This document shows, one piece after another, positions 3,772 to 29,300 of a DNA stretch of 32,293 nt (its first letter is position 1; each line of letters begins with the position of its first letter). The notes beneath the pieces were generated by a model, which had not been told where the DNA came from, ran no database searches, and was given only the letters and a program-made list of their open reading frames with translations. Where the stretch lies: NCBI GenBank assembly GCA_964491865.1, contig CAZBIG010000001.1, forward strand, positions 1 through 32,293, read 5' to 3'. The stretch is from an uncultured Neomegalonema sp. GTDB lineage: Bacteria > Pseudomonadota > Alphaproteobacteria > Rhodobacterales > Rhodobacteraceae. The translations under genes were made by a program, and so were the position numbers.

Positions 3772-3819
3772 CGGGATCTCCTTCGACTGCGGGGCGCCGC
3801 GGACGGGCGCCGGAACGAC

Positions 3820-5096: not shown

Positions 5097-5332
5097 GCTC
5101 GTCTCGAGCATTTACAACTGCGAGAGACGGACGGTAAATCGGGAATTGGCAAGGAGTCGGTTGAGAATTCGACAGAGAGCGGGGCGCGGCCGCCTGAAAC
5201 TTCGGGGCGGCGGCGGGCTGATCGCCCGCGCGGCGCGGGACACGCCGCTTTCGGATCGCCTCAACGCCGACGACGACGAATAAGCGCGCTCGACCGGGGA
5301 CCTGCCCCGACAGCTCGAACGCCGCGGGTCTT

Positions 5333-5336
5333 GGAG
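5333..5336 (+). promoter_or_regulatory. Shine-Dalgarno (GGAG) of the giant gene
   Basis: GGAG is followed by the 6-nt spacer TTGACG and then ATG at 5343. Confidence 0.6.
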
Positions 5337-5342
5337 TTGACG

Positions 5343-8300
5343 ATGACCGATGATCGTTGGGTTGACGAGCGGTGGGACGATACCGAAGCGAGCGACGGGC
5401 GGGACGCCCGCGCGCCGGCCGCGCCGCCGCAGGCGATCGCCGCGCCGACGGATCCCGACGCCGAGGCCTCGCTTCACTTCGAGCAGATCGAACCGCGGGT
5501 CTTGCTGTCGGCGGATCCGATCACCGCGAGCACCGACGCCGCGGAAATCATCGTTCAGACCGAACAGCTTGAAGATTACGACGGCGACGGAACCGCGGAC
5601 TCGGCGCTGACCGTGCGCGACGGCGACGGGCTGCTGGTGAAGTCCTGGAACCTCGCGACCTTCGGGGGCGACGATGTCGGCGCCACCCTCGAAATCGACG
5701 GCGCCGCCCCGGACGCCGGCGTTTCGCAGACCCTGACGATCCTGCACAGCGACGAGCTTGCGCGCTATGTCGACGAAATTCGCATCGACGGGGTCGAACC
5801 CGGCGCGCCGGCGTCGGACCGCTCGGCGATCGACACGATCGTGTTCGACAGCGCCAACGAAAACTACGATCTGGGCATCGACGCGGACCTCGATCTGCTG
5901 ACCGGCCGTCTGGCGGTGCAAGGCCTGCTGGTGGCGTTCGACGGCGGCGTCCGCATCGAAACGCCGGACGTCCTGCGGTCGGTCGATGTCAGCGTGATCG
6001 CGGACCGGGTCGAAACCGACCCCGCCGGCGGCGCGTTCAGCGTCGCCGAGGCGCTCGTCGGCGGTTCCGCTGCGATTTCGGGCGCGGTCGGCCTGTCCAG
6101 CGGCGAGACGCTGATCGACTTCCTGCTGCCGACCAGCGTTCAAGAACTGACCTTCTGGGGATCTTTCGGCGCCGACCAGCTCGAGATCGGCGGGGCGGCG
6201 GCCGCGGTGTGGGCCGTCGAGGGCGAGGTGGCGGACACCGGCCTGTTCGGCGCGGTCGAGGGTCGATCGTCGCCGCGGCTGGCCTTCCAAGGGATGGACG
6301 CGTTCGTGGGCTCGGCGGGCGACGACACGCTGCTCGGCTACGATGTCGGCGGCGCGGGCCTGTGGACCGTCGAGGACGAGGGCGTCTTCACCGCGTATGA
6401 CGCCTCGTTCTCGGGCTTCGAGCGCTTCGAGGCCGCGGGCTCGGGCGACACGATCTACTTTAAGGAGAACGGTTGGCTGAGCGCCGGCTTCGACGGCGGG
6501 TCGGACGCGACGCTGATCCTCGAGAGCGCGATCGACGCGCTTTCGGTCGCTCTCGACGCGACCGGCGAGGGCGTGATGACGCGCGGCGGTCAGACCGTCG
6601 CCGTGTCCGGCGTGACGCTCGTTGAGCGGCAGGACGAGAACAACGTCACGATTTTGTTCAACGACACGGACAACAACGTGACGCTCTCGTACGGCTATTT
6701 CGACGAGACCGACCTTGAGGACGCGCGCGACGCGAAAAAACAACCGTTTACGGGGGGCGCCGGTTATTATTGGCGTGTAAGCGAACAGGGCAAGGACGAC
6801 CGCTTCTTCAAAACGCCGCAGAACACGATCCGCTTCGATCTCGGGGCCGGGGCCGACCGTCTGGTGGTCGAGTCGACCGACACGTCGTTCAGCGGCAATC
6901 TCATCATCAACGGCGGCGCGGACTCCACCGTTCCGATCTTCTCGGCGACGAACTTTACGGATCCGTTCAACTGGGAGTACGAAGGCGACGAAGTCGTCTT
7001 CAAATCGGACGTCTTCACCGGCGGCGGCGACATCAAGGTCCGGGCCGAGGAAATCTTCGTCCGCTCCGGGGTGGCGCTCGACACGCGCCGCGGCGTTCAA
7101 AGCAACGGCGCGTTCCGGTCAACCGGCGACTCCGGCAAAATCGACCTCTTCGGCGAGAAAATCAAACTCCGCACGAACAGCGCGCTGTTGGCTGGCGCGA
7201 CCGGCGCGTTCAGCGCCGGCGACGTGCTGCTCGAAGTCGAGGAGGAGACCAAGCGCTATTTCTTGTCGCCGATCTCGCTGGCGGAGCGGGTTGTCGAAAT
7301 CGACGTCGCTCAGGGGGCTCGGGTCGAGGGCGCCAATGTCCGCATGATCGCGCGGGCGACCGACCTCGGCAGCGCGAAACACGCGCAAACCAAAGATCGA
7401 GACGCCGACCAGCCCCGCTTCTTCAGCGGCGTCTACGACGACTTCCAAGTGATGTTCCAACAGTTCCCGATCGCCTTCCTGAACCCGACCGGGATGAACG
7501 CCAGCGTCGGGATCCGCCAGGCGGACGCTTTCGTGACGGTCGACGGGGCCAGCATCGTGGCGTCGGACAGCGTGAAGCTGCGGACGAAAACCGATGTGAG
7601 CGCGAACGTCCAGGCGTTGGTCTACGATTCCTACCTGAACCAGCAAGCCGAGGCAGGCCGGACGGCCGGAGACTCCAAGACCAAGGGCATGACGCCCGAA
7701 GTCGCCGTCGCCTGGTCGCAAGTCTTCACCGAGAGCAAGGCCGTCGTGAAGGGGGGGTCAACGATCGTCGCCGGCGGCGACGTCGACATCATCGCCCAAG
7801 GGGCCGCGAGTTCGACGACTCTCGCCCGCATGTCCACGAACTTGCTGAGCAACAGCTTTTACAAAAAGAACCCGCAAGACTTCTCGGCCGCGGCGAACGC
7901 GGACAACAAAACGGGTTATAACGGCTCTCTGTCGGACAAGCATCGATCTTTCGCCTTCACCACAGCTTGGGTTGAAGCCGATCTGACGGCGCAATTGCGC
8001 GACACCAGCTCGATCGTCGCCGGCGGGGCGGTGAACGTTCTGTCGACGGGCTCGGCCAAGGCCAAGGGCGAGACCTCGATGAGCCTGTACCTGAACGTTT
8101 CAGGCGGCGCGGGCACTGTGTTCACGATCGACAAGTCGAAATCGCGGGCGATCGTCGAAGGCGACATCACCGCCGGGGGCAAGTTGCAGTCCGGCAGCAC
8201 CTTCGACGCGGCGGACCCGTATACGATACACTTCGACACGCATCTCGATTCCTATGTGATCGAGATGAAAGATCACGGCTTCGAAACCGGCGACCAAATT

Positions 8301-11300
8301 ACTTACCAGATCGGAGACAGTGAAAACCCAGCCTTGGCGTCGGAAATTCCGGGTCTGACGGACGGCGAAGAATATTTTGTCCTCAAAGAGAGCGACGACA
8401 TCTTCCGCCTCAGCCCGATCGCGCCGATCCAAATGGACGTCGGCGCGGCGTCCTCGACCAGCACGCACGATCTGCGGCGATATGAGACGACGACCTTTAT
8501 GATCGACGTGGTGTCCGACAACACCATCGACATCGGCGACCATGGTTTCGACGACGGCGATCGCGTCTATTACACCCATGAGGGGCGGGCTGGCAGCGAC
8601 CTGGGCCTCGCCACCGACGGGACCTGGCACCGCGTCGTCGCTGTGAACGAGAGCGCCTTTAAGCTGATCGAAGAAAGCACCTATGCGGCGCTCGTCGAAA
8701 ATGGCGCATGGCTGTTCGACGACTCGAACCTCGAAAACATCAATGACGACGACTTTGTCGAGATCAAGGAGGGCATTGGCGGCCTCCACCGTTTCTACAC
8801 CGCGGGCCAAGCTCTGAGTTCGGCGCAAGGTCAGCAATTGAAGCTTGTCGACCACGGGTTCGAGACGGGCGACGTCGTCAGCTACACCTTCGCCGGAGCG
8901 CCCGGCTCGGAGCTGAGATATCTTGAGGACGGCGCGGAGCGGACGCTGTCGCACCATGGCGACGCCTTCGATACGGAGGTCCAGCAATATGTCGTCGTGG
9001 TCGAGGACGTGTCCGATACGGATGGGGACGCGAGCGACTATTTCCGCCTGGTGAAGATCGAAGACTGGCCGACGGTGTACGAAGACCCGGGGCTGGTCGA
9101 CGCGTTCGCGCTCGACTTCAGCCCCACCACCGAAGGCGGCGAGCATCGCTTTTTCGCCGAGCGAAACCTGGCGGTCGAGGCGCGCGCTTTCCGCATCGCC
9201 GAGATTTCGTTGAGCGACGCGGCCGACAACGCGAACACCTTTTACATTCCGGAGCACGGCTTTCAGACCGGCGACTTGGTGACCTACGGCCCGCTCGAGG
9301 AGTTGAACGGTTCGGGCTCGCCGCGGTGGATTCTCGGCCCCACCCTCGACCTCGAATACTACGTGCATGTGCCCGACCCGGTGAACGACCCCGATCGGCT
9401 CCGCCTGATCGAGGTGACCTCGATCGAAGACCCGACTGATTTGGCCTCCTTCGACAGGGCGGACGCGGTCGAATTGACCGTCGCGGACGGCGTCGACCTG
9501 CTCAACGAGCATTTTCTTCACGGCGCCCGCCATGTCGCCAGCTTCAATCCGGAACTCGTCAAGGGCGGCGATGCGCGCAATCCCGACAGCGGCTCGATCG
9601 ACCCGACGCGCGACGCGCTTTACTTCGCCGACGGCCACGGATTGGCGACCGGCGACCTTGTCACCTATGTGACCGACCAGTCGGTGACCAACCCGGTCAC
9701 CTTCCCCCATGTCGCGCATCACCTGTCGTTCGATCCCCGTCAATCGATCGCGCACGGCATCGAACAAGCGACCTACGAACTCGACGTCTTCATCAATGAC
9801 GACCATCTGATCGATATCGACGGCGGGCTCGAGAACGGCGATTTCGTGATCTACGAAGCGCGCGACAATGAGCTCGGCTCGCTGGTCGACGGCGCGCGCT
9901 ACCGCGTCCTGTTCAATCACTTGGACGGCGACGGCGCGCCTGATCCGTCGCGCTTCGTGCTGATCGCCGAAGAGAACTGGGACGACGCCTTTGTCGCCGA
10001 CGTCGCCGCCGCCAACGACGTCATCGAGCGTTTCGGCAGCGCGAACGCCGATAATCACAGCTTCACCCGCTATTTGTTCGACGACGACATCGATGGCGAG
10101 GCGGTCGGCGTCGTCTATATGTGGGGCAACAGCTTCCAAGACGGCGACCTCGTCACCTATCGCGCCGATCCGGCGACCGGCCCGATTGACGGCCTGACGG
10201 ACGGCGAGACCTATCGGGTGATCTTCCGCTCGTATACGGACGCCGGGCGGCTCGACCCCGACCGGTTCTCGCTGGTCGAACAGTCCGAATGGAACCGGGT
10301 CGGCTGGGAATTCGGCCAACCCAAAAACCGCCTGAGCGCGGTCGAATTCGGCCCCGCGTCCGGAAACCACGCCTTTGTCGGCACAGGCGATCTGCGATCG
10401 ATCCACGATAACGCGCTCGGCATCCAATACGGCGAGGAACTGGGCCTCAAAACCGGTCAAAAAGTTCAATACTGGTCCGGGACGTATTTAGAGACGGCGC
10501 TTGGCGACGCGGACGGCGTCACTTTCGCAAGCGACGACACGCTGTTTTTCGAGGGTCACGATCTCGTCGACGGCGACCTGGTGCGGTATCACCATGGCGG
10601 CGAAGCAGAAGACGCGATCTCCGGGCTGCAAATCGACCAAGACATCTATCGCGTCATTAACGCCACCGAAGACAGTTTTCAGCTGGTCCTCGACACCGAC
10701 TATCAGGCCGCGCTCGCCGCGGGCGACGAGGTGTCGTCGCTTGCGCCGATCGACACGCTCGGGAACGACGGCGAGCTCGACCTGCCGAACGACCATCTGT
10801 TCATGAAAGTCGTCGACACCAGCATCGACGGGCTCGTCGACCAGCAATATTATTACGTCATCGTCGACTCCGAAAACCCGGGCCTGCTGCGGTTGGCGGA
10901 GACCCGAGACGACGCGCTCGCCGGCGTGGCGATCGAGATCGTCGGCCATGATCCGCTGTCGGCGGTGCTCGGGGCGGCGGAGTCCCTGCACGAATTGAAG
11001 CTGGTCGTCGAAAACGAAGACGATTTTGATCTCGGATATTTCGAGCGGAAGCTGATCGACTTCGAGACCCCGACGGGTGAAGCCGCTGATTACGAGATTT
11101 CAGGCCTCACCCTCGGCGAGAAGTACACCGTCGTCGTGATCGACGATCATTGGATCCGCTTGCTGACCGAGGACGAGCTGCTGGGCGCGGACGCTGCGAG
11201 CGGCATCCTCATCGAGGGCCGCGGCGCGGGCGACGCCCACCGCTTCACGCTCGACGGCCTCCGAGACGGTGTTCAAGTCGAGGCGGATCTCGAGACCAAG

Positions 11301-14300
11301 CACATTGCAAAGTCTAAGCAGGAAGTCGGCATTTCGTTCAACTGGGCGAAATGGAAGGACTTTTTCAAGTTCGGGGATGTTTTTGCGTCCATCTTCTTCA
11401 TGGGCAGCGCGTACGGCACTAGTCAGTTTTACAAGCCGGACCCAAAACAACAGGAAAACCTCCAGAAACAGTACGAGAAAGAGACGGTGAAGTTCGCGGT
11501 CTCGACCGGCGTCACGCTGGTGGAGCAGACGGTCGAGGCTCTGGTCGGCGCCAATGCGCCGGAGGGGGAGACGACGGACATCGTCAGCGGCGACGCCGTT
11601 ATCATTCGCGCAACGTCGAAGCAGAGCTCGAACCACAACGTCCAGTCGACCCTTGAAAAGTCGAAAGGCAAAGGCGGCGATTTGTTCGCGGTGGCGTTCG
11701 GCTTTGCGATGATCGAAAACACCGGACGGGCCGTGGTCGGCGATCAAGGCCGCATCGACGCGGCGGGCGACGTGACGGTGACCGGCAAGGCGCTCAACCC
11801 GTTCAACGTGCCGATCGAGTATCTGTTCTTAGGTTGGCAAGACCATTGGGCGTCGAGCGGTTTCAGCGCCCTGTCGGACCGTCTTGACGGCAATGGCGGT
11901 CTGGGAACCATTTTCCTCAATAACTGGGTCACCTCATTCGCCAAAGGCGAGAACACGGATGACCGATCGGGAAGCGCGTCGACCTATGCGCTCGCGGTCG
12001 CGACGAACCTCTATTACAATGACGCTATTGCGAAGGTTTCGTCGGGCGCGCGGATCAATCGGGACATCGACCGCCTGACCGCGCTCGGGGCCGCGGCGAA
12101 ATCCGACCGGAGCGTCGAAGTCCGCTCGGTGATCACAGAAAAATTCGCCTTCGCCACCGGGGTCGCCAAGACCAGCTATGATATCGGCCTGGCGGCGAAG
12201 TTCTTCGCCAAAAAAAGCGCGTCCGATGTGCTCAAAGGCGCATTCCGGTTTCGCGGCGCCGGCGCCCAGCGCGCAATCGGCGCCGCCATCCATGTCGAAG
12301 TCAGCAAAAACAACTCCCATGCGACCATCGAGGCCGGCGCCGAGATTACGACGGGAACGGCTGGCGACCTAAAGGTGATCGCCGACGAAGAAATCTTCCG
12401 CCTCGCGCTGGCAACCGCCGGCGGCCGTGCGCACGAGGGTTTCAGAGACAAGGCGGACCGCGGGACCCTTTCGGCCGCGGGCACCGTGACCTGGTACGAC
12501 TTGGCGAGCCAAGTCTACGCCGGGATCGTCACCAATGACGAAGCCGGCGTCGTCGTCGAAGGCGGCGACGTTCTGGTCAAGGCTGATTCCGACGTCGAAA
12601 GCGTCGCGATATCGGGCATTGAGATCAGCGGAGACCGGAACACGGTCGGCATCTCGTTTACTTCAAGCTATTCCAAGCGTGACGTCGCCGCATTCATCGG
12701 GGCGCGGTACGATAAATATGACGACAATCCGGCAGAGAACTCGGTCGACGGCCAAGCTCGATTCGATGTGGGCGACGTTCGGGTTCAATCGGACAGCGAC
12801 GGCTTTATCGTCAGCGGGTCCACCGCCGGCACGCGCTCCATGGATCATTCGCATTACGATTTTGAGCAGCTGGCAGGTGATCCGGAGCGGAATGAAGCGC
12901 TCAGTACAGTGTCCGCGGCACAAACCACAGCGCCAGGACGCCGCCCGAGCTATGCGCCGTCAACCCAAGCGGACGGACTCAGCGCTGTTGCTGGCGGCGT
13001 GACGTCTTCCGGCTCGATCTCTCTCGTGTACCTGGGCGACGACACCTTCGCCTATATCTCCGATCGTGGTCAGTGGTCTGTCGACGATGTCGACGTCTCA
13101 GCCAAGGCGGGGACCTCGGTCGCGACCGCGACGGGCGCCGCCGCGCGGACGAAGAAGCCTAAATACACCCTAGAAGCGCCTGCGCGCACAAGCGGGTCCA
13201 CCACGATCGGCGGGGCGGTGTCGATCAATGTGGTCGAGACTGCGACCCACGCCTTCGTGCGCGACGTCGATCTCGAGCAGCGCAACGCTGACGACGCCCC
13301 GGTCGTCACGGTCAAGGCGAGGCGGACCGGCGACATAAATTCGTTCTCGGCCGCTCTCGCCTTTGACAGCGTGAGGTACGAGGAAATCGCAGAGGTTGAG
13401 CTCATTCCGGACAACTCGAGGTCGTTCGCCGCGGCGAATTCAATGAGTTTTGTCAAGGACGAGGTCAACGCGCAGATCGTCAACGCGTCGCTCAGCGGCG
13501 AGGGGACCGCGGCGGCGGGCGATCTCACGGTGATCGCCGCGCATGAAGGCGATGTGCTCGGGGTCGGCGGCGGCGCCAGCTACGGCACGGGGGCCGGCGC
13601 GGGCGGCTCGCTGGCGCTCAATTTCGTGTCGGCGAGCGCAAACGCGAAAATCGAAAACTCGGACATCGCCGTCGACGGCGACGTGTCGGTATTGGCCCGC
13701 AGCGACGTCGATGTGCACGCAGTCGCGATCAGTTCCGGCGTGGTCGGGAAAGTGGCCGACGGTCAAACCAACACCCGCACGAGCGCCTTCGGCTCGACCG
13801 TCGCGGTGAACTGGGTCGACTCGGACGCGGCGCTGTTGGACGACGAAGTCGACGGGCGCGCAAACCTGCCCGATATCAACGCCACGATCGCCAACAGCCG
13901 CATCGTGGCGGGCGGCGACGTGATCGTCGAAGCGCAAGACGACTCGAGAATCGCCTCTCTGGCCGGCGCGATGGCGATCGGCGGCACCAGTTTCGGCTGG
14001 GGCTCGGCCATCTCGATCAATGTGATCAGCACCGAGGTGGACGCGAAGATCGAGGGCGACAGCCATGTCGCAACGCTGAACGGCGACGTGACGCTGCTCG
14101 CGCATTCGACGACCGACGAGCTGCCGCGCGTCCCGTTGCCGAGTTTGAAGGTCACCTTCAGCTTCTCGACCATCTCGGGCCAGAGGTTCGTGCCCTATCC
14201 CTCTGGCGGCGGGGTCAGCGGCGGCAAATCGCCGTTTAACGACGGCGCCGACTCGAAAATCATGACGCTGGGCGTCAGCGGGGCCGGCGGCCAGGGCGTG

Positions 14301-17300
14301 ACAATCGGCCGGTCCCAGAGCGTCAACGTGATCACGTCGAAAGTGCGCGCGACGGTCGGCGACGGCGTCACGATCGAGAGCGGCGACGATGTCGAGGTCT
14401 TGGCGTCGGACGAAGCGGTGATCCGCTCGATGAACGGCGCGATCTCGGTGAACCTGAGCGCCGTCGCCTGGCGCGGCGCCGGCTACAGCGCGGCGATGAC
14501 CAGCAACGTGATCGACGCCGCCACCACCGCGCGGGTCGAGGACGCGACGATCCTGGCGGCGGGATCCGTTCGAGTGCGCGCCGATCAGGCGGCCCAGTCC
14601 CACGCCATCGCGTTCGGCGCCAGCGGCGGAACGGCCGGGGCCTCGATCGGCGGCTCGTCGCTCGGCGGATCGGTCGCCCTCGCGACGGTTTTGAACACGG
14701 TCATCGCGCATGTCGGCGAAGGCGCCAGCGTCGTCGCGGCGGAAGACGTCCATGTGAAGGCGGTGAACCGCGGCGTCGGCACCGCCGGCGCCGGCGCGCT
14801 GTCGGCGTTCGCCGGCGCGGCCGGCGGCAGCACCGCGGCGTCGGTCGGCAATCTCACGATCATCAACAAGACGTTCGCCCGCGTCGACGGCGACGCCCGC
14901 ATTTTCGCCGGCGCGGCGGGCGACGGGTTCGACGACCTCGACGGGCGCACCCGGCACGGCGTCGCTGTCGAAGCCAAGTCGCGCTATGTGTTTACGGTCG
15001 TCTCCGCGAGCGGGGCCGTGTTGATCGGCGCCTCGGGGGCCGCCTTTGGCGGCGCGGCCAACGCGAACGTCGTCGAGGACCGCACGAAAGCCTATGTGAC
15101 CGAAAGGTCCGGGGCGGGGGCGCCGACGATCCGGTCGCTGGGCGACGTCGCGATCAACGCGCGCAGCGAATTCGAGATCACCTCGGCCGCCGCCGGCGCG
15201 GGCCTGTCCATCGGGCGCGGGGCCGGCGCGGGCGTGGAAGTGACGATCGCGTCGCGGCAGACCGCCGCCTATGTGGCGAGCGGCGGGGTGATCGACGCCG
15301 GCGGCGACGTGGTCGTGACCGCCGAGGCCGATGATCAGCTCATGCTTCTGGGCCTCGCCTACGGCGGATCGCTCGGCAGGGCCGGCGCGGTCGCGTTCGC
15401 CCTCGACGTGGGCGCGCTCGCTCTCGAGACGACGGCGAAGATCGGGGCCGACGCGCGCGTGACGGCGATCGGCAACGTGGCGGTGACCGCGCTTTCGGAC
15501 GTGGAGCTCGACCACGCGGCCGGCTCTTTGGCGGTCGGGATCGACGCCGTTCCGGGCATCAGCCCCGCCACCGTCTCGGCCAGCGGCGCGGCGACCGTGG
15601 TCGACAAGACCACGCGGGCGGTGATCGCCGAAGGCGCGCAGGTGTCCGCCCTCGCCCAAACCGACGCGATCGAGGTGATTACGGGGCGGATCACGCAAGG
15701 CGAGGCCTATGACCGCACGGCCTCGCGCGAGATCCAGGTCGACGTCGATCCGACCGCCGATCTCGCGGCGGACGGCGTCACGATCAATTCCGCGAGCCAC
15801 GGCTTCCTGACCGGCGACGAAGTGCTCTACGTCGCGAGCGCGCGCGACATGGGCGACCTCGTCTCGGGCCGCAGCTATGTCGTCGTCAACGCCGACGCGG
15901 ACAGTTTCCAACTGGCCGAGAGCGCCGACGGCCCCGCCCTGTCTCTGACCGACGGGACGCTGCTGGGCCGGAACGACATCCAGACCTTCTCGACCGTGAT
16001 CGAGGTGGCGGCGCCGGAGCTGTCGGAAGACAGCGAAGTCCCGCTCGAGGCGGCGCATCGCGGCGATTACGTCGCGGAAACGGCGCTGCGGCGGGGCGTG
16101 ATCGTCGCCGCCGCGTCGATCGACGATCTGGAGATCTACGCCACGACCGGGGCTATGGCGATTTCGAGCGCCTCGGTCGCGATGACGGGCTCGGTCTCGA
16201 CCCACAGCATCGACACCGAAGCGGTGATCCGCCAAGGGGCGCGCGTCAACGACCCGACCGCCTTCGCGCGAAGCGTGGCGCCCGCCGACGTGACGGGCGG
16301 CGCGATCGACGCCTGGGGCCACGGCTTGGCGACCGGCGACCGCGTTGTCTATGCGGGCGCGAGCGTCGCCGACCTTGTCGACGGCGGCGTTTACGCCGTC
16401 ATCGCCCTCGACGCGAACCGCTTCGCCCTGGCCGCGATCGACGCGCCGGAGACGCCGATCGCGCTCAGCGCCCCGTCGACGGCCTTCACGCTGACGCGCG
16501 CCGATCTGCCGGACGCGCACAGCCGCCAAGGCGTCTATGTCGACGCCGGCCGCGGGCATCAGATCACCGTTGTCGGGGCCGGCGTCTCGGCCTCGAAACT
16601 TGCGGCGGCCGGCACGGCGGCGCTGAGCCTGCCGATGTTGGCGGGCGAGACCTACGCCGCGATCGAGGGCGGCTCGGGGGCCGTCGACACTGTGGTGCGG
16701 GCGGCGGGCGACGTCGAGGTGGCGGCCTTCGCCGCCAGCGTGACCGTCGGCTTCGCGGTCGGCGGCGCCGGCTCGGTCGGGATGCCGGCGCTCGCCGGCG
16801 CGGCGACGGCGGCGACCATCGACACCGACACGATCGCTCAGATCGCGGGCCAGGCGCGCGTGACCGCGGGCGGCAACGTCGCGGTCTTGGCGCAGGACGA
16901 CACTCAGGTCTACAGCGTCGCCGGCGCCGGCGCTTTCAGCTACGGCGCGAGCGCCGGGTCCGGCGCCATTTCGACGGTCATCATCCAGAAAGACACCAAA
17001 GCGTCGATCGAAGGCGCGTTCGTCGACGCCATGGGCGCGGGGCCCAGCACGGTCGGCGGCGTGACCGACGGCGGCTATGACGAGACCGGCGCGCCGGGCG
17101 CCGTCGACGGCGTCCGCGGCGTCGTGGTCGACGCCTCAAGCCGCGAGATCATCGAAGCGATCGCCGTCGGCACGGCGGCCGCGGGGGCCGGCTTCACCCT
17201 TTCGGGCTCGGTGGTTCACGTGTTCGCCGACAGCGACACGGCCGCCTTCGTGCGCGACGCGCAAATCAACCAGAACACGGGCCCCGGCGCGCACGCCGAG

Positions 17301-20300
17301 CAGTCGGTGCTCGTGGGCGCGCGCAACATGCTCGACGCGACCGCGGGCGCAGGCGGGTTGAGCGTGCAAATGGCGGGGGTCGCCGTCGGCGCGGCCTTTG
17401 GCGTGGTCACATTCCGCAACGACACCACGGCTTTCATCGGCCATGAGGGCCTGGCCGGCGACACCTCGGAAGTGCGCGCCGCCGACACGGTCGCGGTGCG
17501 CGCGGTCGGCGATCAAAAGCTCAACAACGTCGTCGCCGCCGGGGCGATCTCGCCGTTGTTCATCGGCGCCGCCGGGGCCTTCGCGGTCGTCAGCGTCGGC
17601 CAGGACGCCCAGAAAGACTGGAGCGACGGCCAGGGCAATGTCGGCTCGCTGTCCGAAGCGCAGGCGACCACCTCCTCGGAGAACTCGGGCGACGTGGTCG
17701 GCGAGTCGGACGAAGCGCTCGGCAATTTCTCGGGCGGCTATGAGGCGACCGCGCCCGAAGGGCTCGCCCTCGACGCCGGCGCGGTCGAAACCGCGGATAT
17801 CGGCCTTGTGCCCGGCGCGACCTATGTCGTGATCGCCGCGGACGGCGACGTCTTCCAGATCTCCGACGCCGAGGGCGGCGCGCCGATCACGATCGACATC
17901 GACGCGATGACGGCGGAGGAGCGGTATCTGTTCACAACCGCCGAGGGCGCGCGGTTGAGCTTCACGGCCGACGACACGGCGATCGACGCCAGCGGCCAGG
18001 TCGACGGCGGGCTGTTCTTCATCGCGGACTCGGCGCTTCAGGTCGGCGATCAACTGACCTTCGAGGCGCCCGGGCGGGTCTATCTGACCGAGGAGAACGG
18101 CCAGCGCGCCGGGTCCGGTTGGTCGACGGGCGCGCTGGTGGTCTATGACAGCGGCGCGTCGGCGGCGTTGTCGGGGCTGGTCGACGGCGCGGCCTATTAC
18201 GTCATCGCCGACGAAGAGCTCGAGGGCGGCGTCCGGCTGGCGGACAGCTATGAGAACGCGCTGGCCGGGATCGGCGTCTCGATTTCGGCCGGAGAAGGCG
18301 ACGGCCATCGCCTGATCCGCGCCTTGCCGACCTTCGATCCGGCCGGTCCTCGGGTCGACGAGGCGACCGGCGCGATCGACCTGGAATATGATTTCGGCCT
18401 GTCGACGGGCGATCTCATCCGGTACAGCGCGTCGGACGGCGAAGCGCTTGGCGGGCTCGTCTCGGGCCGCGCCTATTTCGCCGTGGTGGACGCCGAGGAT
18501 CCGACGAAGATCCGGCTGGCGGGGTCGCGAGACGACGCCTTCGCGGGCGCGCACATCGCCTTCACGGTGGGCGACGCGTCGGGCGCGGCGCACACGCTGA
18601 CGCCGATCGGCGACACCGGCGGCGGGATCAACTCGGGCGCGGCGCTGAGCATGGACGGGTTGGGCCGCCAGAGCGCGGCGCCGTCGCTCGAGGCGTTGGT
18701 TTTGTCGACGCCGAAGACCAGCGGCGTGACCGCCATGATCTGGAGCGACGTCGTCATCGACGCCGCCGATCTCGAGGTGACGGCGACCCTCGACAGCGAT
18801 CTCGACGTGACCGCGACCGGCGTGGGGATGGGCGGGGCGCAGCCGGCCGGCGGCGTCGGGGTCGGGATCGGGATCTCGACCGTGGTGGTCAACAACGACG
18901 TGACCGCCGAGGTGGTCGCCGGCTCGGGCGCGCTCGACGGGCGCACCACCCGCTTGAACGGGGCCGGGGCGCTCGACGTGACGGCGGATTATCGCGGCTC
19001 GGTGGACGCGGTCGCGGTGTCGGGGGCCGGCGCGTTCGTCGCCGCGGCGGGCTCGGCGGTGGTGATCCAGGACAGCAGCGACGTCAAAGCCCTGCTCGGA
19101 ACCGGCGCGCAGGACGCGTCCCAGGGCGTGGCGGTCACGGGCTTCGACGCGGTGACGGTCGCGGCCGACGGGCGGCTGCGGGCCGGGACGTTCGCGTCCC
19201 ACTTGATGCGGGCCGGCGGCGGTCTGGGCGCGAGCGTGGTCGATGTGCGGACCTCGGGCGACGTCATCGCGGCGGTCGGCCCGCACGGCCGGATCGGAAC
19301 GCCCGGCGATACGATCGGCGATCTGACGGTCTCGGCCACGCGCGCGATGTCGAACGATCAGGTCGACGCGCTCGACGACGTCTTCGACCGCGACGCGAGT
19401 TCGATGGCGCTCGGGGGCTCGGCGGCTCTTATCGGGGCCGTCGGCATGGCGGCCACGGCGATCGACCGCGGCGACGCCGTCGCCGAGATCCGCGAGAACG
19501 CGCGCGTCGACGCGACGGGCGTGCTGACCGTCGCCGCCGACGCGTCCGCGCATGTCCGGGCGACCGCGGCCGCGCTGCAGTTCGGGCTGAAGCACGCCGC
19601 CGGCGTGGTGGTCACGCGCGCCGAAAGCCGCGGCGACGCCCGCGCGCGGATCCTGGGTCAAGACGGCGCGCCGGCCGAAACCGACGCCCCGGCGATCCGC
19701 GCCGGCGGCGTGTCGGTGACGGCGCAGGCGGATAATCGCGCCAAAAGCTCGGGGAGCTCTCTGGCGATCGGCGCCACGATCGCCGCCTATAACCAGTCGG
19801 ACGCGGTGGTTTCCGGCGACGTGACGGCGCTGATCGGGGACCACGCGCATGTGGTCGCGGCGGCGGGCGGCGTGCTGGTCGGCGCGACCGGGCGCCTGCA
19901 CGGCGAGGCGGTGATCAGCGGCGCGACCGTCTCTTACGGCTCGGTCGCCGCGGGCCAGGCCCGAACCGACGTGTCCGGCGGCGACGTCGCGGCGGCGATC
20001 GGGGCCGGCGCGATCGTCCGCGCCGCCGCCGGGGTGGGCGTACAGGCCCGGTTCGAGGCGGCCGAGGACGGCCGCGCGGCCTACGCGGAAACGCTGGCCG
20101 GATCGGGCGACCTGGTCGGGCTGAACCTGCATTGGGCCGAGGCGCGATCCGACGTCGACTCGACCGCTCGGGTCGGGGCCGGCGCGATCATCGACGGCGG
20201 GGCCGGCGCGGTGGGGATCAGCGCGGTCTCGCATCGCAACACCGCCGAAGCCCGCGGCGACTCGGTGGCGCTCGCGGCGCTTGCGGTCGGCCAAATCGCG

Positions 20301-23300
20301 ACAAACAGCGAGGCGCGCGGCGAGGCCCGGGCCGAGATCGCCTCCGGCTCTTCGGCCGGCGACGGCGTCGTGATCCGCGGCGCCGGCCTGTCGATCACCG
20401 CCGACCAGGCCGCGAGCGCCGACACCACCAACAAAAAGGCCGCGGGCGGGGTGGTCGGGACCGTCCATGTCGCGCCGGCCACGGCCGACGCCATCGTGGA
20501 CGCGACCGCTCTGATCGGAGACCATGCGCAAATCGCGGTGGACGGCGATCTGACGCTCGCCTCGGACGCCAAAGCCGAGGCCGACGCGCGGATCTTCGCC
20601 GCCGCCGCCTCGCTTGGCGCCAACATCACCGTCTCGGACGGCGAGGTCGAGGTTCGACCGACGGTCAAGACCCGGATCGGCGCCTACGCCGATCTGGCGG
20701 CGGACGCGGTGACGATCACGGCGACCGCCAACGACTTCGACAAAACGCCGTTCGACGACCGCATCTCGACCGTCGACATCGCGGCGAACCGTCTGACCGT
20801 GAACGGCGACGCGGCGGGCCACGGGCTGGTCGACGGGCAACTGGTGCTCTACGACGCGGGCGGCGCGGCGGGGCTCGCCTCGGGCGATCCGGCCGCGAAC
20901 GATCTGGACGATCCGGCCAACGCGCATCTGCATCTCGACGAGACCCGGGCCAACACCGCGCTCGAAAGCGGGCGCCTGTACCGCGCGCTGGTCGACAGCG
21001 CGACCACCTTCCAATTCGGCGAAGAGTTCGCCGGGGTCGACATCGACGACGCCACCGACACGATCACCTTCGTCGACGACGCCGGCGTCCCGCGCGCCCA
21101 CAGCTTCCGCGACGGCGACGTGGTGCGCTACTACGCGGTCGACGGCGTCGCGGCGCCCGGGCTCGAGGACAGCGCCGACGGCGAAAGCGCGGCGTATGAA
21201 GTGATCGTGGTGTCCGCCACGCAGATCCAGTTGCGCCCGGCGTTCGACGCGCCGTTCGCGGCGTCGCACGGGTTCGACCCCTCGAAGGTCTACGACGCGG
21301 AGACGGGAGAGTTGGTCGAGGCCGAGACCGAAGCCGAGAGGTCCGTGCGCGACAGCGTGATCACGCTTGACGGGCACGGCTTCCGCGACGGCCAGGCGGT
21401 GGTCTACACCGCGCCCGAAGCCTCGGCGTTCACCGGCGGCGGCGTCGACGCGGTCACCGACAGCGAGGGCGCGTTGGTCTACGACGCCGACGGCGCGCAA
21501 GTCTATGGGGACGACGACACCCTCTATCTTGGTCAGAACGACTACCAAGACGGCGAAGAAGTCGTCTATCTCGGCGTCTCGGGCGTCGAATTCCAGACCC
21601 GCGACGTCGACCTCGACGCCTCGTCGACCCGCATCACGGCGATCAACCACGGGTTCTCGACCGGTCAGACGGTCCAATACGTCGCCGCCGAGCACGACGC
21701 GGGCGACGAGGTCTCGGTCCGCACGACGACCGAGCGCTTCTACACTATCGGCGACGTCGAACACGTCCTCGACGGCGCGACGGTCTCGGAAGCCAAGTCG
21801 AAGGCGCTCGGGGGCCTGGCGCTCGACGGCGAGTACATGGTGATCGTCCATGACGCGAACACCATCTCGCTGCAGCAGGTCGCCACGGCCCCGGACGGAA
21901 CGCCGCTGGTCGACGTCAACGCCGCGCTCTCACTGTCCGCGCCGGCCTTCGACGGGGCGGTCACCCATTACCTGACCCCGACCACGATCGCGGTCGAGGC
22001 CGAAGACGGCGGGACGACCTTCCAGCCGACCGAGACGATCGACGGGCTGGACAGCGGCCGGCGCTACGTCGTCAAGCACTTCGACGCGACCGGAACGCGG
22101 GTCCAGCTGTTCGAGCGCACGATCGACACGCGCTTCGAGACCGATCCGGAGATCGTCGAGGACACCGGCGAGCGCCATGTCTACGACAGCGTCGGCGACG
22201 TGACGGTCGCGTTCGGCGAATCGGCCGGCGCGCTCGGCGCGAGCGCGCCCCACATCTTCGATCTGGCCGGCCACGGCTTCGCCGAGGGCGAGGTGGTGCG
22301 CTATTCGGCGGCGACCGCGGCGATCACCGGCCTGGTCGAGGGCGCCGACTATGTGGTCAGCCTCAGCCATCCGGACGGACGCGCGCTTGACGGGGCGAAC
22401 CAGTTCGTCCTGCTCGACGGGCCGGGGGGCGCGCTGGTCGAAGCGACGGCGCTGGCCGCAGGCGGCGGCGACGCGCACAGCTTCGAAAGCGTGCGCCAGC
22501 TCGAGGCGGTGATCTACGAAGCGCGCAGCGTGACCCGTGAGATCGCCGAGACGCCGTCGGTCGATTTCGCCGCGGGCCCGATCGCGCTGTCGGCGGCCGC
22601 GGAAGACCGCCAATCCGGCGCCGTCCATAGTCTGAAGCGGCCCGGCGCGCGGGCGATCGACGGGCTGATCAGCGGCGTGACCTACTACGCCGACGTGCTC
22701 GACGCCGATCGTCTGCGCTTGGCGACGACCGCCCAAGACGCCGCCGCCGACCGCTTCATCACGCTGGACGCGACCGGCGTCTCGGGCCTGCACGGCCTCG
22801 GCGCGATCCGGGTCGACCTCGCGCGCGACGACGCCGGCGCGACCCACCGTCTGGCGATCGACTTCAGCGAAACGCCGAGCGGGGCGGACGCGCACCGTCT
22901 GTTGTCTTCGAGCGGCCTGCCGCTCAACCTGCGCGCGACCGCCTCGGGCGACGGCCAAAGCTCGGTGTCCTTCACCACCGGAAGCGGCGCGCTGGTCGGC
23001 GACGTTTCAGTGAACCAAGGCGATCTGCGCCAGGTCGTGACGTCCGAGATCGACATCTTCGCCTCGGAAATCGCGGCGCGCGGCGACGTGACGGTCGGCT
23101 CGCGCGCGAAGACCGACGCCTTGGCCGACGGCGACGCGCTGTCGACGGCCTTGATCGCGACCGTCGGTTCGAACCATGTCGAGGCGGATGTCGACACCAT
23201 CAGCCGGGTCGTGATCGGCGGCGTCGACCCGACCCGGTCGGACGCCGGCGCGATCGGCACGCGCATCGCCTCGGCCGGCGACGTGACCATCACCACCGAC

Positions 23301-26300
23301 GCCGACACCGAAGCCTACGTCGCGACCGAGCGCGCGGCCGGCGGGCTGATCGGGGTCAACGTCGCGGGCGGCCGGCTGACGGTCGGCTACGCCAGCGACA
23401 TCGTTTTGGGCGCGGGCGAGATCGCGGCGCCGGGCGATTTGACGGTGGCCGCGCGCGCCTCGACCGAAGGCCGCGCCACCACGCGCTCCGACACCGGCGG
23501 CTTGGTTCCGGTCGCGACCGCCTATGCGACCGTGAAGATCGAGGGCGGCGGCGCGAACGGCGCGCGGCTCGACATCGCGCGCGACGGCGCCATGCGCCTG
23601 AGCGGCGGCAAGGTGGCGCTGGCGGCCGAAACCCGCGAGCTGACCGCGAAGGCCAAGGCGCGCGCGGGCTCTTACGGCGTTATCGGCGGCGTGCGGGCGG
23701 AAGCCGACGTCGAGGCCGATGTCGAAAACACGGTTCGGCTGCGCTCGGGCGCCGAGGTTCAGGCCGACTCGGGGCTCGACATCACGGCGGCGTCCGACAA
23801 GGTCGCGACCAAAGCCGACGCCAACGCGACCTTGACAACCTTCATCATCTCGGCGGACGCGTTGGCCGACAACAGCACGCGGGTCGACGCCTTGGTGCAA
23901 GCCGACGACGGCGCGGCGACCATCGTGGCCCCGGGGGCCGACGCGGACGCGCTGACGGTCCGCGCGGACCGGGGCGAGGTGAACGCCGACGCCGACGCCA
24001 ACCGGCGCGTGCCGACGATCAAGATCAAAATCAAGACGCCCTGGAAGACCTATAAGATCCGGATCGAACTGGCGGGCGGCAAGCGGGACAACGATACGAA
24101 GAAAAGCGGCGAAGAACAAATCGTCTGGAACGCCGACATCGCGGCGGCTCGGGGCGAAGCGCCGATCCTTTTGATCAACGAAAACCGCGAAATCGAACAG
24201 CTGAGCGGGTTTGTCGTCAATCAGGTGAGCGGGCGCGGCGCGACGCGGCTCGACGAGGGCGCGGCGTTCGAGGCGGGCGCGGACATTCAGGTCGAGCGCG
24301 TCTCGACCGGGTCGGAGAGCCGGGTGGTCTTCGAGGCCGAGACCATTTCGGGCTCGGGCGGCGAGGCGTCTTTGTCGCCGACGCTGGGGAGCGTCTACAT
24401 CGTCAATCGCTCGGACCTGGATCTGATCGTCGAAACGCTCGACCTGGCCGACGACGACCCCGAGCTGACGATCGAGGCCGTCGGCGACTCGTCGCTGTCG
24501 TTCGCCGCGACGACGCGCGAGGTGCTGTCGACCGATCTGCTTATCCAGAACACCCACGCCGGCGCGGATCTGACGCTGGCCGGGACCATCGACAACGGCG
24601 TCGGGGCGACGCGGCTGATCACGGCCGGCGGGGCGATCCTGTCGAGCGGCTCGGGCCAGCGGCTCGAGACCAACACCCTGACCGTCGAGACCGGCGGCGC
24701 GGCGGGCGACGTCGGCGACGCGAGCGCCCGGCTGTCGATCGATCTGGTCTCGTCGGCGGACCGCGAGGCGGCGATCGACATTCAGGCCTCGGGCGCGATC
24801 TTCCTCGATCTCGGCGTGATCGCGCGCAAAGCCGGCGCCGCCGGCCCGATCGCGTTCGACGCGACGCGGATTTGGGCGGCCGGCGACGCGGCCGACCTGC
24901 GCCTGCGCACCGCGATCCACCAGCAGCCGGGAACCGCGAGCGGCCGGATCACCGGCGTCAACGTCGCCGCCCCGGGCCAACTCCAGGCGCCGACGGCCGC
25001 GCGCGGCGGCGGCGGCGACACGGCGGTGGCGCTCGACCTGTCCTTCGGCGCGCAGAGCGGCCTCGGCCTGCGCTCGAGCGGGATCGTGTCGATCGAGCGC
25101 GCGGACGCGGCGCTCGGAACCGACCCCGCGATCGACATCGACGCCGTCGTCAGCGCGCCGGCCCAGAGCGGCGCGGTCTATGTCGTGACCGACGGCGACG
25201 TCGCGCTCAGCGCCTTCGCCAGCGCCTTGCCGGTCGGCCAGGTGGTGTCGACCTTCGGCGACGTGACCTTGACCGCGGACGCGATCACCGACGCCGAAAG
25301 CGACGGGGCGGCGATCGAGCCCGGCGCCTGGTTCGACGGCGCGTACGGGCCGGCCGACGTCGTCGGCGGGGCGATCTCCCTCTTCGCCGGCGCCGGCGGC
25401 GTCGGCGCGGCGGCCCAGCATCTGGAGATCGACGCGGGCTATTCGGGCGCGGGGGCCGCGAGCGCGACCGCCGCGGGCTCGGTCTATCTCGCCGACACCT
25501 CCGGCGACTTCCTGGTCGCCTCGATCCGCGCCGAGGGCGCGACCCCCGAGACGGCGCGCGTGGTTCTGAACGCGCTTGACGGGTCGCTGCTCGGGCTGGG
25601 CGGCGAGGGCCCCTCGGTGACCGCGCATGCGATCGACTTGCGGGCCGCCGGCGCGGTCGGCTCGGCGACCGAGGCTTTCCTGGTCGACGCCGGCGTGCTC
25701 GCGGGCGGGACGCCGTCGGACGGGCAGGTCGGCGCCGAGGGCGTCGACGGCGTCCACCTCGCCGACAGCGACGGCGCCTTGCGCGTGCTGCAGGCGGTGT
25801 CGAGCGGCGGCGACGTGCGGCTGGTCACCCGCGATCTGGCCGCCGCCGAAGGCCAGGACGAAGACGTCGTGCTCCTCGGGTCGGGCGACAGCCACGCCGT
25901 GGAAGGCGGCGCGACGCGGATCGACGGCGGCCGGATCGAAGCGGCCGGCGCGGTCGTGGTGCGGGCCGGGGACGACGTGGTCTCCGAGGCCGGGACGCTG
26001 ATCTCGGCCGGGCAGACCGTCGAGATCTACGGCGACGACGGGGACGCCGACGCCGGCTACGGCGCGCGCATCCTGTTGTCGGGGACCCTGCGCGCCGGGG
26101 CGGCCGCTTCGGGCGTGAAGTCCGTCGACCAGGCGGTTTCGGTGTTCGGCGGCGCCGACGCCGACCGGATCACCCTGTTCGAGACCACGCTCGAGGCTCA
26201 GACCAACGTCTACGGCTCGGCCAGCGCGATCGCCTCGACGACGGCCGACGGCCGCGACCGGTTAGAAGCCGTGCGGCTGCGCACGATCACGACCGAAAGC

Positions 26301-29300
26301 CGGTTGGCGGACGGCGCGACCCGCGTCGACCGGCTGCGTCTCGACGGCCAGTCGGGCGGCGACGACTACCGGGTCTACACCGCGGGCAGCCTCGCCGACG
26401 CGCCGCAAGACTACACGGTCGACGTGCTCGACAGCGGGCGCGCGGATGACGGGGCCGACACGTTGAGCGTGTTCGGCGCGAGCGACGCGGCCAGCGGCGC
26501 GGACCCCAACATCGCGACGACCCGCGGGGAAGCGGACGGGTCGGCCGGCGCGGGCGACGACGTCTTCCTGCTGCGGGCGGCGACCGCGCTGCCGGGCGAA
26601 GACCTCGACGGGGCGCGGATCGGCTATGTCGCGCTGCTGCACGGCTCGTTGACCGACACGCGGGCGGGGACCGACGCGTCCGGCCAAGCGATGGACGATC
26701 GCGGCCAGCCGATCCAGCGCCCGAGCGAGACGGCGCGGATCAACTACACCAGCGCGGTGAACGGCCGCCTGTCGGTTTTGGGTCTGGGCGGCGACGACTA
26801 TTTCGCCAGCGACGACACGGTCGCCGCCACGACGCTCGACGGCGGCGCCGGCGCGGACGTGTTCCAGATCGGACAGCTCTACGCCTCGGCGCGGGACGCG
26901 GTCGCGGGCCTCGCCCCGTGGGACGCGTTCGCGACCACCGAAGTGAACATCGGCGTGGGGGTCGACGACGTCCAAACGGCGTATCTGAGCGCGGGCGCCT
27001 CGGCCCCGCTGTTGGCCAGCGGCGGCGACGGGAACGACGTGTTCTCGGTCTACGCCAACCAGGGCGTCACGCGGCTCGAGGGCGATGCGGGCGACGACGC
27101 GTTCAGCATCCGCGCCTTCGCGCTGACCAGCTCGGGCGAGATCACCCAGGAGATGACCGAGGTCGACGGCGGCGAGGGCGACGACCAGATCAGCTATCAC
27201 CTGAACGCGCGGGTCTCGATCGAGGGCGGCGAGGGCTTCGACAGCCTGATCGTGATCGGCACCGAGGCCGACGACAATTTCGTGGTGACGGCGGACGGCG
27301 TCTACGGGGCGGGTCTGTCGGTCGAAATGTCGGGCACCGAAGAGATTCGCGAAATCGACGGTCTCGAGGGCGACGACACCTTCTTCGTTCTTGGCACGGC
27401 CTTCGGCTCGGCGACGCGGGTGATCGGCGGCCTCGGCTCCGACACCTTCAATGTGGGGTCGAACGTCACGGAAGAAATCATTTCGCAAAGCATGACCGGG
27501 GTCGGCCGCTCGATCGGGCACGCGACGCGATCGGACGACGCGGCCTGGTCGACCCTGCCGGTCGACGGGGTCGACGTGACCGTGGCCGCCGCCGGCCGGC
27601 AGGGCTTGGTGTCGATCGAAGCCAGCGACGGGGCCACCGTGGTCGACGAAGCGGCGGCCGACGGCGCGCAGTGGGACAGCGTGTCGGTCCGGCTGACCGC
27701 GCGCCCGACCGAAACGGTGTATGTGACGATCTCGGCGGGGCGTTCCTCGCAATCGGAAGCCGACCGCGGGGCGGAAAGCCTGCTTCTGTCGACAACCGAT
27801 CCGCGCAGTCTCGGCGACCCGGCGGCCGGCTTCTTCGACACGGTCCTGGTCGACGGCGTCGCCGAGACCCGGCCGAACCACGACGTCGTGCTGGTTTTCA
27901 CGCCCGAAGACTATGACGCCGCCCAGACGGTCTACGTGACCGCCGGGGACGACGCCGCCAGCGAGGGCGTCAAAGACGCGGCGCTGTTCGCGACGACGCA
28001 GAGCGCCGACGCCGCCTTCGACGGCGCGCCGGTCGATCTCGAGCTCGTGACGATCCTGGACGACGACCGCGCCGAGATCGTGATCGAAGAGTTGGACGCG
28101 TCGGGCGAGAGCGACGGGGAAACCCTGGTCCTCGAGGGCCGCAACGCGCTCGAGGCGGTGACCGACCAGTACCGCCTCAGGCTCGGGGCGCCGCTCGCGG
28201 CGGGCGAGATCGTGACCGTGACGATCGCCTACGACGATGCGCGCCTGTCGCTGTCGGACGCCGACGGGCGCTTGGTCGAGAACGGCGACGGCACCGCCAC
28301 GCTGCGCTTCGAGCAAGGCGTCGCGGGCCGCGACGCCCATGACGCGGCGCTGGTGACCGTGGCCGCGATCGACGACGACGCGGCGCAGGGCGCGTCGTCG
28401 TCGGGGCTGATCCACACCTTTACGACCTCGCGGACGAGCGGGGCGTACTTCCTCAACCAAATGGTCGTCGACCCGCAGACCGGCGCGGCGACGCCGACGC
28501 AGAAACGGCTGGGCGTCGCGCTCCACGACAACGACGCGCCCCAGGTGCTGGCGCGCGAGACCGACGGCGGCCTCGTCGTCGTCGCGGACGGCCTCGACGC
28601 CGCGGGCCGGGCCCTCGGCGACGGCCGGACCGACAGCTACACGCTGCGCTTGAGCGCGCCCCCCGCCGAAACGGTCCGCCTCACATTCTCGGCGGACGGC
28701 GCGACGTCGATCGACCTGGCCGCCAGCAACGCGGCGGCGCGCGCCGCCGGCTTCGCGGGCGACCGCTTCGGCTACGTCGCGATCGGCGCGGCGGGGGCCG
28801 GGCTCAGCGTCGGCGACTTCGCGCTGACCGACGACGGCGCGGCGGCCCCGGCGCTCACCCGGCTCGACGGCGGATCGTTCCTGACCGACGGCTTCGAGGT
28901 GGGGCGGCGCGTCGCGCTGACCGACGCCGACGGCGCGCGCCTCGGCGCGTTGAAGATCCAGTCGATCAGCGCGGACGGCGCGCGGATCGTCTTCACCGAC
29001 GAGATCGACCTTTCGAGGCGGACCGCCGGCGCGACCACGACGCTGATCGGGGCGACCCTGACGCGGCTCGCGGTCGAAACGGCCTTTACGCCGACCGCCG
29101 CCGAGGCGTCGGACAGCGACGCGGCGGACGCCTGGTGGCGCCCGGTCGAGGTCGTCGTCGCGGCGGATCCGTATTTCGAAGAGCCCGAAGAGCAGACCGC
29201 GACGCGGCGCTTCGCGCCGACCGCGCACTCGACCTCGGGCGTCCAGGGCCCGCTCGAGATCGTGGGCGGGTTCGAGACCCAGCGCACGCTGGTCAACGCG

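Follow-up and report, generated by a model that had tools for sequence, protein, structure and literature searches.

The window analysed here is a 32,293-nt stretch of contig CAZBIG010000001.1 from an uncultured Neomegalonema sp., and it carries a single giant gene. We conclude that the window encodes most of a giant protein, probably a secreted surface protein or extracellular filament of the class annotated as ‘LEPR-XLL domain-containing’ or ‘LktA family filamentous’, which would be exported by a type I secretion system (T1SS) as a fibre displaying HG modules. HG modules are compact all-beta units of ~85 aa with the signature ‘HGFxTGDxVxY ... GLxDGxxYYVI ... FxLA’. The analysis gives the anatomy of one such giant protein, that is, a conserved repeat backbone and a set of inserted modules tied to baseplate and tail-fibre proteins of phages.

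The giant gene is the sole long open frame, at 5091-32291 (plus strand), and is still open at the 3′ end of the window. Its likely start is ATG 5343, with GGAG 7 nt upstream; from this codon to the window end there are at least 8,983 codons, the gene being incomplete at its 3′ end. The GC content of the window is ~72%, and GC content at third codon positions (GC3) is 0.79–0.96 in the frame of the giant gene, which in a genome of this composition fits a real gene. Amino acid positions below are counted from nt 5091, aa = (nt-5091)/3+1, while LEPR-XLL residues are counted from ATG 5343. The parts of the gene are as follows.

5343..32291, plus strand: giant open reading frame (open frame, GGAG, GC3 0.79-0.96)
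5472..5543, plus strand: LEPR-XLL N-terminal domain (‘LHFEQIEPRVLLSAD...’; NF012209, 31.4 bits)
7491..8156, plus strand: backbone (solenoid-type) block 1, ~3 units (internal profiles, E 1e-6 to 1e-21; NF012206 weak, 20 bits; homolog-only profile 3.5e-4)
8259..11162, plus strand: HG cluster 1, ~10 modules with a spacing of 62-146 aa (HG profile, E 1e-7 to 1e-21; phrog_2885, 2.8e-14)
11484..15704, plus strand: backbone block 2, ~19 units (NF012206, internal and homolog-only profiles)
15783..16025, plus strand: HG module 2a, single (HG profile, 1.3e-17)
16074..16253, plus strand: isolated backbone unit between HG modules 2a and 2b, aa 3662-3721 (internal profiles, 1e-9; homolog-only profile, 2.8e-5; collinear with the backbone of homologs)
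16257..16514, plus strand: HG module 2b (gap in six aligned homologs)
16530..17678, plus strand: backbone block 3, ~6 units (NF012206, 46 bits; homolog-only profile, 1.5e-15 to 4.7e-13; 34-38% identity to homologs)
17802..18512, plus strand: HG cluster 3, 3 modules (HG profile; module aa 4420-4510 modelled)
18723..20732, plus strand: backbone block 4, divergent, ~8-10 units (internal profiles; homolog-only profile, 6 matches down to 4e-11)
20808..22721, plus strand: HG cluster 4, ~6-7 modules, several with long internal loops (HG profile; phrog_2885, 4e-8)
22980..23828, plus strand: backbone block 5, ~4 units, the weakest in support (internal profiles S1 and S3 only, E 1e-6 to 1e-12)
23829..29954, plus strand: middle region of the C-terminal part, ~2,040 aa, without Pfam or NCBIfam match
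29955..32291, plus strand: RTX-type calcium-binding repeats, continuing past the window end (PF00353 HemolysinCabind, 126.7 bits, 11 stretches)

The LktA-type backbone

Profiles of the backbone and of the HG modules were built from single seeds and iterated on the giant protein itself. Three separate backbone seeds each converged on 31–37 units, which form five blocks (nt 7491-8156, 11484-15704, 16530-17609, 18723-20675 and 22980-23828) plus one extra unit at nt 16074-16253; the backbone thus has at least 37 units in total. The NCBIfam model NF012206 LktA_tand_53 (‘tandem repeat-containing filamentous protein’, curated cutoff 50 bits) matched aa 2301-4800 with 170.1 bits in 12 stretches. The original prediction had noted a resemblance to the tandem 53-residue repeat of the Fusobacterium LktA family, and at the level of the repeat this link holds. 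The 3′ half of block 2 (13491-15710, aa 2801-3540) is canonical LktA_tand_53, with 164.7 bits in 10 stretches; the 5′ half (11391-13490) is more divergent and scored 38 bits. NF012206 gave no match on block 4 or block 5.

The original prediction had itself raised the concern that an alternation of backbone blocks and HG clusters might reflect its approximate boundaries. Shuffling within 60-aa windows reduced the number of matches to 0.05–0.1 per protein, compared to 22–37 in the real sequence. A profile made from block 2 only found blocks 1 and 3 (E ~1e-9) and, weakly, block 4 (8e-4) and block 5 (9e-3), but had no match in the HG clusters, at the N-terminus or downstream of block 5. A homolog-only profile, made from 1,310 units of database homologs without the window sequence, recovered blocks 1 (weakly), 2, 3 and 4 together with the isolated unit, but not block 5. 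Thus, the alternation is real and is not an artefact of boundaries or composition. Judging by these profiles, block 5 is a divergent and less certain member of the backbone.

The order of parts along the protein is S - H(~10) - S - H1 - s1 - H1 - S - H3 - S - H(~7) - S (S, backbone block; s1, lone backbone unit; H, HG modules). The five blocks and four HG clusters lie near the places where they had been predicted, and the predicted cluster sizes of ~1000, 250, 270 and 720 aa agree with those of the four clusters formed by 22 profile matches. The alternation had been described as strict, however, and this part of the description has to be given up, because the lone backbone unit at aa 3662-3721 splits HG cluster 2. 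Similarly, the block coordinates needed a correction at one point: block 1 is supported from ~nt 7491, not from 6990.

We also re-examined the length of the repeat. The profile consensus has 54 positions from GDVxVxA to the next GDVxVxA, in line with the period of 53–55 aa proposed from two measured pairs (53 and 55 aa). Actual spacing is less regular than such a period implies: when the ‘T.A.I’ turn was mapped as an anchor on 37 units, steps of 53–83 aa, mostly 56–64, were obtained, and some steps of ~100–128 aa probably conceal a degenerate unit. The consensus unit of the homolog-only profile is ~59–60 aa long, and ungapped BLOSUM autocorrelation of the backbone blocks has a peak at lag 62–64, not at 53–55, which is weak because indels between units blur the signal. 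Thus, 53–55 aa is the length of the backbone core, and the usual spacing is 59–64 aa. Pairwise self-BLAST of 100-aa tiles had hardly any matches beyond the RTX region, and the repeats can therefore be seen at the profile level only. One single-unit seed profile, U1, was overfitted and failed to extend, and was discarded.

HG modules and their phage relatives

The HG seed profile converged on a 48-position core, IDLAGHGFETGDLVTY...GGLVDGEEYRVIV..D..FRL, and gave 22 significant matches in four clusters at aa 1057-2024, 3565-3780, 4238-4474 and 5240-5877 (nt 8259-11162, 15783-16430, 17802-18512 and 20808-22721). Ungapped autocorrelation within HG cluster 1 has a weak signal at lag 104. Identity between modules is 35% within clusters and 33% between them (p = 0.08), and the test for local tandem amplification of the modules was negative. 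Self-BLAST revealed no recent duplication in the giant protein, and the HG arrays are old.

To see how the modules are related to the backbone, we turned to homologs. A word-indexed search returned 7 backbone homologs and a profile search 83, nearly all of them unnamed; in a scan of GTDB representative genomes, the best match had 36–38% identity. The names that do occur are ‘leukotoxin LktA family filamentous adhesin’ (in a Thauera metagenome-assembled genome; the nearest named homolog), ‘LEPR-XLL domain-containing protein’ (Mesorhizobium) and ‘beta strand repeat-containing protein’. The sources are mostly environmental metagenomes and free-living taxa (Thauera, Chloroflexi, Planctomycetia, Mesorhizobium, Bradyrhizobium). 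Several family members (among P0183-P0193) have the ESPR type V signal peptide extension (PF13018) in place of LEPR-XLL; the LktA-type backbone thus appears to be joined to different export signals depending on lineage.

When aa 3460-4190 were aligned with six homologs, the backbone was collinear throughout. The site of HG module 2a is occupied by an HG module in two of these proteins (P0001 and P0002), by a short loop in three (P0003, P0005 and P0007) and by an unrelated insert in one (P0004). It is also filled in P0158, P0160, P0161 and P0169, which brings the number of homologs with a module at this site to six. HG module 2b (aa ~3723-3808), in turn, is missing from all six aligned homologs and splits the conserved turn ‘INQ....QSVxVxAG’, and the alignment indicates that it is a lineage-specific insertion. 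In six homologs the match spans query positions 28-263 and 349-436, skipping 264-349, while target coordinates are contiguous. Since the backbone is collinear with or without a module and target coordinates run on uninterrupted, the HG modules are domain insertions into a conserved backbone. This is a better description than ‘beads’, the word used in the original prediction, or than independent blocks alternating with the backbone. Across the backbone family, HG modules are present in 36 of 85 members.

For the HG fold we used AlphaFold2 on aa 4420-4510 with an alignment of 17 module sequences. The resulting model (pLDDT 89.6, pTM 0.81) has six strands and one short helix. Among solved structures, no PDB neighbour was found at E<=0.001, the best being the P22 coat I-domain (E 0.49, TM 0.41). 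Foldseek against BFVD, a comparison in which both sides are predicted models, gave 9 matches at E<=1e-3, with TM 0.64–0.79 and rmsd 1.9–4.3 Å for all but one. The domains matched, at TM 0.70–0.80 and rmsd ~2–3 Å, belong to subunits and initiators of the baseplate wedge and to tail-fibre and tail-spike proteins, the majority of them from cyanophages and uncultured Caudovirales. PHROG profiles point in the same direction: of 17 HG modules, 12 have a match to phrog_2885, a ‘baseplate wedge subunit’ family (down to E 7.4e-11), and 6 to phrog_38233, ‘tail fiber protein’ (9.2e-11); HG cluster 1 taken as a whole matches phrog_2885 with E 2.8e-14. Sequence and predicted fold together indicate that the HG module is homologous to modules of phage baseplate-wedge, tail-fibre and tail-spike proteins.

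The HG module is not matched by any Pfam or NCBIfam model, even in P0008, a protein with 27 canonical copies. An assignment to the FeoA / SH3-like small barrel (PF04023) was considered and dropped: there is no match in the window protein, and the 61.9 bits summed over P0008 include no significant single stretch. P0008 (2,987 aa) consists of ~27 near-perfect HG modules between helical N- and C-terminal segments that by eye resemble flagellin termini. P0008 may thus be a flagellin-like protein of giant size in which an HG array takes the place of the variable region, although no flagellin domains were reported on it by Pfam at E<=0.01.

HG cluster 1 had no match in a word-indexed homolog search, and an exhaustive profile search was required to reach its relatives. 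By this search at least 8,397 cluster representatives contain the HG module at E<=1e-3, 655 of them at E<=1e-30. A large share of the HG-bearing proteins are 3,000–8,000 aa long and contain up to 27 copies. Among the best 150 HG proteins, 101 have LktA-type units, 47 an LEPR-XLL-like N-terminus and 73 at least three alternating blocks. In other proteins, 92 of 226 HG clusters are flanked on both sides by backbone units, and 22 of these 92 are single modules. P0009 and P0052 have the same interleaving, with NF012206 scores of 713 and 177 bits. The layout is not unusual for this class and recurs in most HG-bearing giant proteins of the databases; the interleaved architecture is a recurrent design that is not peculiar to the window. 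It follows that the giant protein is a new member of an annotated class, one which is large and experimentally uncharacterised.

We tentatively put forward a further possibility, that HG is a widespread domain family common to phage host-contact proteins and giant filaments, and that it serves as a movable unit for binding receptors or glycans, of which one copy or a whole array can be built into turns of LktA-type fibres.

Export, function and alternative readings

At the N-terminus, NF012209 LEPR-XLL matched residues 44-67 with 31.4 bits (E 9.1e-8; curated cutoff 17 bits). At the other end, autocorrelation of the RTX region has peaks at lag 9 (z up to 8.5) and at lag 55–58 aa (z 7–8.6). Over 29700-32291 the 55–58-aa period is superimposed as a higher-order one on the 9-aa period of the nonapeptides, which indicates that the nonapeptides are arranged in larger repeating units. 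C-terminal RTX repeats are a hallmark of type I-secreted proteins, and the giant protein would be exported by a T1SS via its RTX end. A distant relative (31% identity) has a gene for a TolC-like OEP two genes downstream.

Pfam at E<=0.01 found no Ig-like (BIg), cadherin or VCBS domain in the whole protein, in agreement with the predicted contrast to RTX adhesins built from Ig domains. No Haemagg_act or TPS domain was found by Pfam in the N-terminal 2,416 aa, and no TpsB/POTRA partner gene is present among the upstream genes in the window, the downstream side lying beyond it. When the HG clusters and the backbone were compared by sequence with Pfam, NCBIfam and PDB, the matches were confined to LktA_tand_53, LEPR-XLL and RTX.

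Between block 5 and the RTX repeats, the region 23829-29954 has distant relatives in marine and other metagenomes (28–49% identity), one of which ends in a Peptidase_M10 (serralysin-like) domain. A short lysine-rich segment, ‘PTIKIKIKTPWKTYKIRIELAGGKRDNDTKK’ (24012-24104), stands directly after block 5 in a protein that is otherwise strongly acidic. The RTX-like C-terminal region occurs in 80 genomic loci, with HG modules within 10 kb upstream in three of them (L007, L038 and L059); the RTX C-terminal part and the core of HG modules and backbone thus combine independently.

Putting the parts together, the protein would most likely function as a filamentous adhesin that leaves the cell by type I secretion and exposes phage-like modules for binding. 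Its LktA-type repeats would form an elongated, beta-rich fibre. Single HG modules would bulge out of the turns of this fibre, and long HG arrays would make beaded segments between fibre stretches. The HG modules themselves could be exposed binding modules or spacers. The whole would act as an adhesin or matrix filament rather than as a toxin.

Several points weigh against this picture. A model of a junction (aa 3460-3900, 8-sequence alignment) has long paired strands of ~20 residues at pLDDT 60–84, but its overall confidence is low (pLDDT 53.7) and a fold search with it gave no meaningful structural neighbours, so that the ‘solenoid’ or ‘rod’ geometry of the original prediction did not find support. 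Block 5, missed by NF012206 as well as by the homolog-only profile, is weakly supported. The upstream neighbours of the gene are housekeeping genes, none of them for secretion, and the 3′ end of the gene, the secretion signal and the downstream genes fall beyond the window; an exact protein look-up, the GTDB scan, an exact 35-mer scan of metagenomes and a search of metagenomes for relatives did not lead to them. A binding role for the HG modules is suggested solely by analogy with phage host-contact proteins. Finally, experimental work in the class is confined to F. necrophorum LktA, a leukotoxin of unknown mechanism (PMC11350119).

The main alternative to binding is a spacer role. In this reading, which we consider rather unlikely, the arrays of HG modules merely extend the protein or act as hinges, in the manner of the Ig-like tandems of classical RTX adhesins; they would space and articulate rigid backbone rods and bind nothing. 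The clusters of ~10 and ~7 modules indeed form linear chains of ~970 and ~640 residues, which cannot be simple loop excursions from one point of a fibre, their modules are very divergent (33–35% identity within and between clusters), as expected if only the fold is selected, and Pfam shows no other extender domain in the protein. Yet single modules inserted at conserved backbone turns add little length and are therefore hard to explain as spacers. Moreover, motif residues (HG, TGD, GL-DG, YYVI) are kept across thousands of proteins, and phage homologs of HG occur in baseplate-wedge, tail-fibre and tail-spike proteins that contact the host. Because the phage homologs sit in host-contact proteins, binding would by analogy be the most likely role of the HG modules.

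A role as a secreted cytotoxin comparable to F. necrophorum LktA or to RTX toxins, in place of an adhesin or filament, is improbable. The LktA_tand_53 repeat is held in common with a known leukotoxin, RTX repeats are present, and pore-forming cytotoxin roles have been speculated for a Vibrio LEPR-XLL/RTX protein of ~8,000 aa (PMC10868602). However, no RTX-toxin pore-forming/acylation region was detected, the NCBIfam RTX_toxin model scoring 88 bits, in the repeat region only, against a cutoff of 1000. Most homologs were found in environmental metagenomes and in free-living taxa, for which a toxin against leukocytes would be of little use, and NCBI names the family filamentous adhesin.

Least credible of all is an alternation produced by low-complexity composition, by approximate boundaries or by a chimeric assembly joining two giant genes. 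In its favour are the high content of Ala, Gly and Val in the blocks, a jump of GC3 from 0.79–0.85 to 0.90–0.96 near nt 14000, inside block 2, and the lack of a homolog of HG cluster 1 in the word-indexed search. Against it, local shuffles give almost no matches, the blocks are recovered with independent profiles, both the curated one and the homolog-only one, the interleaving is shared by more than 70 other proteins, the frame remains open across the GC3 shift, and three of four HG clusters and four of five blocks lie wholly 3′ of it, which makes the alternation independent of the junction. For the alternation itself, the artefact reading is largely refuted.

With respect to codon usage, the lower GC3 values belong to 5091-14090 and the higher ones to 14091-32291, and GC content at first (GC1) and second (GC2) codon positions is likewise lower in the first part. 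The shift falls where the NF012206 score within block 2 rises from 38 to 165 bits. It may be the trace of a recombination mosaic; a join made during assembly is less likely.

Upstream of the giant gene, the window contains the following minus-strand genes.

2079-2933, 2851-3771 and 3820-4530, minus strand: three genes, for a HAD-family hydrolase, a metallo-beta-lactamase-fold (MBL) hydrolase and ribulose-phosphate 3-epimerase (rpe); GC3 0.85-0.88

The ~800-nt intergenic region between the divergent rpe and giant genes includes an AT-rich stretch at 4800-5100 (GC ~0.36), presumably a promoter or regulatory region. A 732-aa open reading frame at 2614-4812 (plus strand) was considered as a partner gene and rejected as a probable shadow frame: its GC1 (0.82) exceeds its GC3 (0.74), minus-strand genes lie opposite, and it has no Pfam match. 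At the edge of the window, 2-1945 (plus strand) is a 5′-truncated gene for a superfamily-1 helicase (AAA_11/AAA_12) fused to a REase_MTES_1575 nuclease domain.

Significance and comparison with known systems

Giant LEPR-XLL, LktA-type and RTX proteins are encoded by some of the largest bacterial genes and are experimentally almost uncharted. The most useful new point of our analysis is the HG module, which has a confident predicted fold and phage relatives, lacks a Pfam-A or NCBIfam model and a solved structure, and is inserted in LktA-type backbones. It is a tractable target for structural and binding work that could explain attachment by giant as well as phage proteins, and a curated HG model would label thousands of regions that are currently blank in annotations. 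If the module is indeed a portable binding unit, the giant proteins of the LEPR-XLL/LktA type would serve as modular scaffolds for display, and their repertoire of binding units would be exchanged with phages.

With F. necrophorum LktA and other NF012206 proteins the giant protein shares the ~53-residue repeat (170 bits against a cutoff of 50) and very large size as a secreted protein. The lktA gene is 8.8–9.7 kb long and belongs to the lktBAC operon, whose LktB has a POTRA domain and is the presumed exporter of LktA; neither the structure of LktA nor the way it acts is reported to be known (PMC11350119). The window protein differs from LktA in having no TPS/haemagglutination-activity domain, in its LEPR-XLL N-terminus and RTX C-terminus, in a backbone interrupted by HG modules, and in its length, which is ~3 times that of LktA.

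The LEPR-XLL giants (NF012209, ‘LEPR-8K’) are similar in three respects: the N-terminal motif, above cutoff here, a size of ~8–9 thousand residues, and C-terminal RTX repeats. This class is defined by the short N-terminal motif only, and interior architectures vary within it. The literature that we found on the class amounts to a passing mention of a Vibrio protein of ~8,000 aa with LEPR-XLL and RTX/serralysin domains (PMC10868602). Unlike in the Vibrio protein, no serralysin domain was detected in the part of the window protein covered here, whose C-terminus lies outside the window.

LapA, MpIBP and FrhA are giant type I-secreted adhesins with C-terminal RTX nonapeptides and an extender of tandem Ig-like domains, which presumably keeps the ligand-binding parts at a distance from the cell surface. 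Compared from general knowledge of these adhesins and not from their sequences, the giant protein resembles them in size, in RTX nonapeptides and in a long repetitive extender. Its extender, however, is an LktA-type backbone with inserted HG modules, without Ig-like domains by Pfam.

Finally, the HG modules resemble those of phages (phrog_2885, phrog_38233 and phrog_32294, and the cyanophage baseplate wedge initiators and fibres of BFVD) in sequence and in predicted fold. In both settings, phage and bacterial, HG-type modules are repeated within very large peripheral structural proteins. The difference lies in the molecule that hosts them, which here is a bacterial secreted filament and not a component of the virion.

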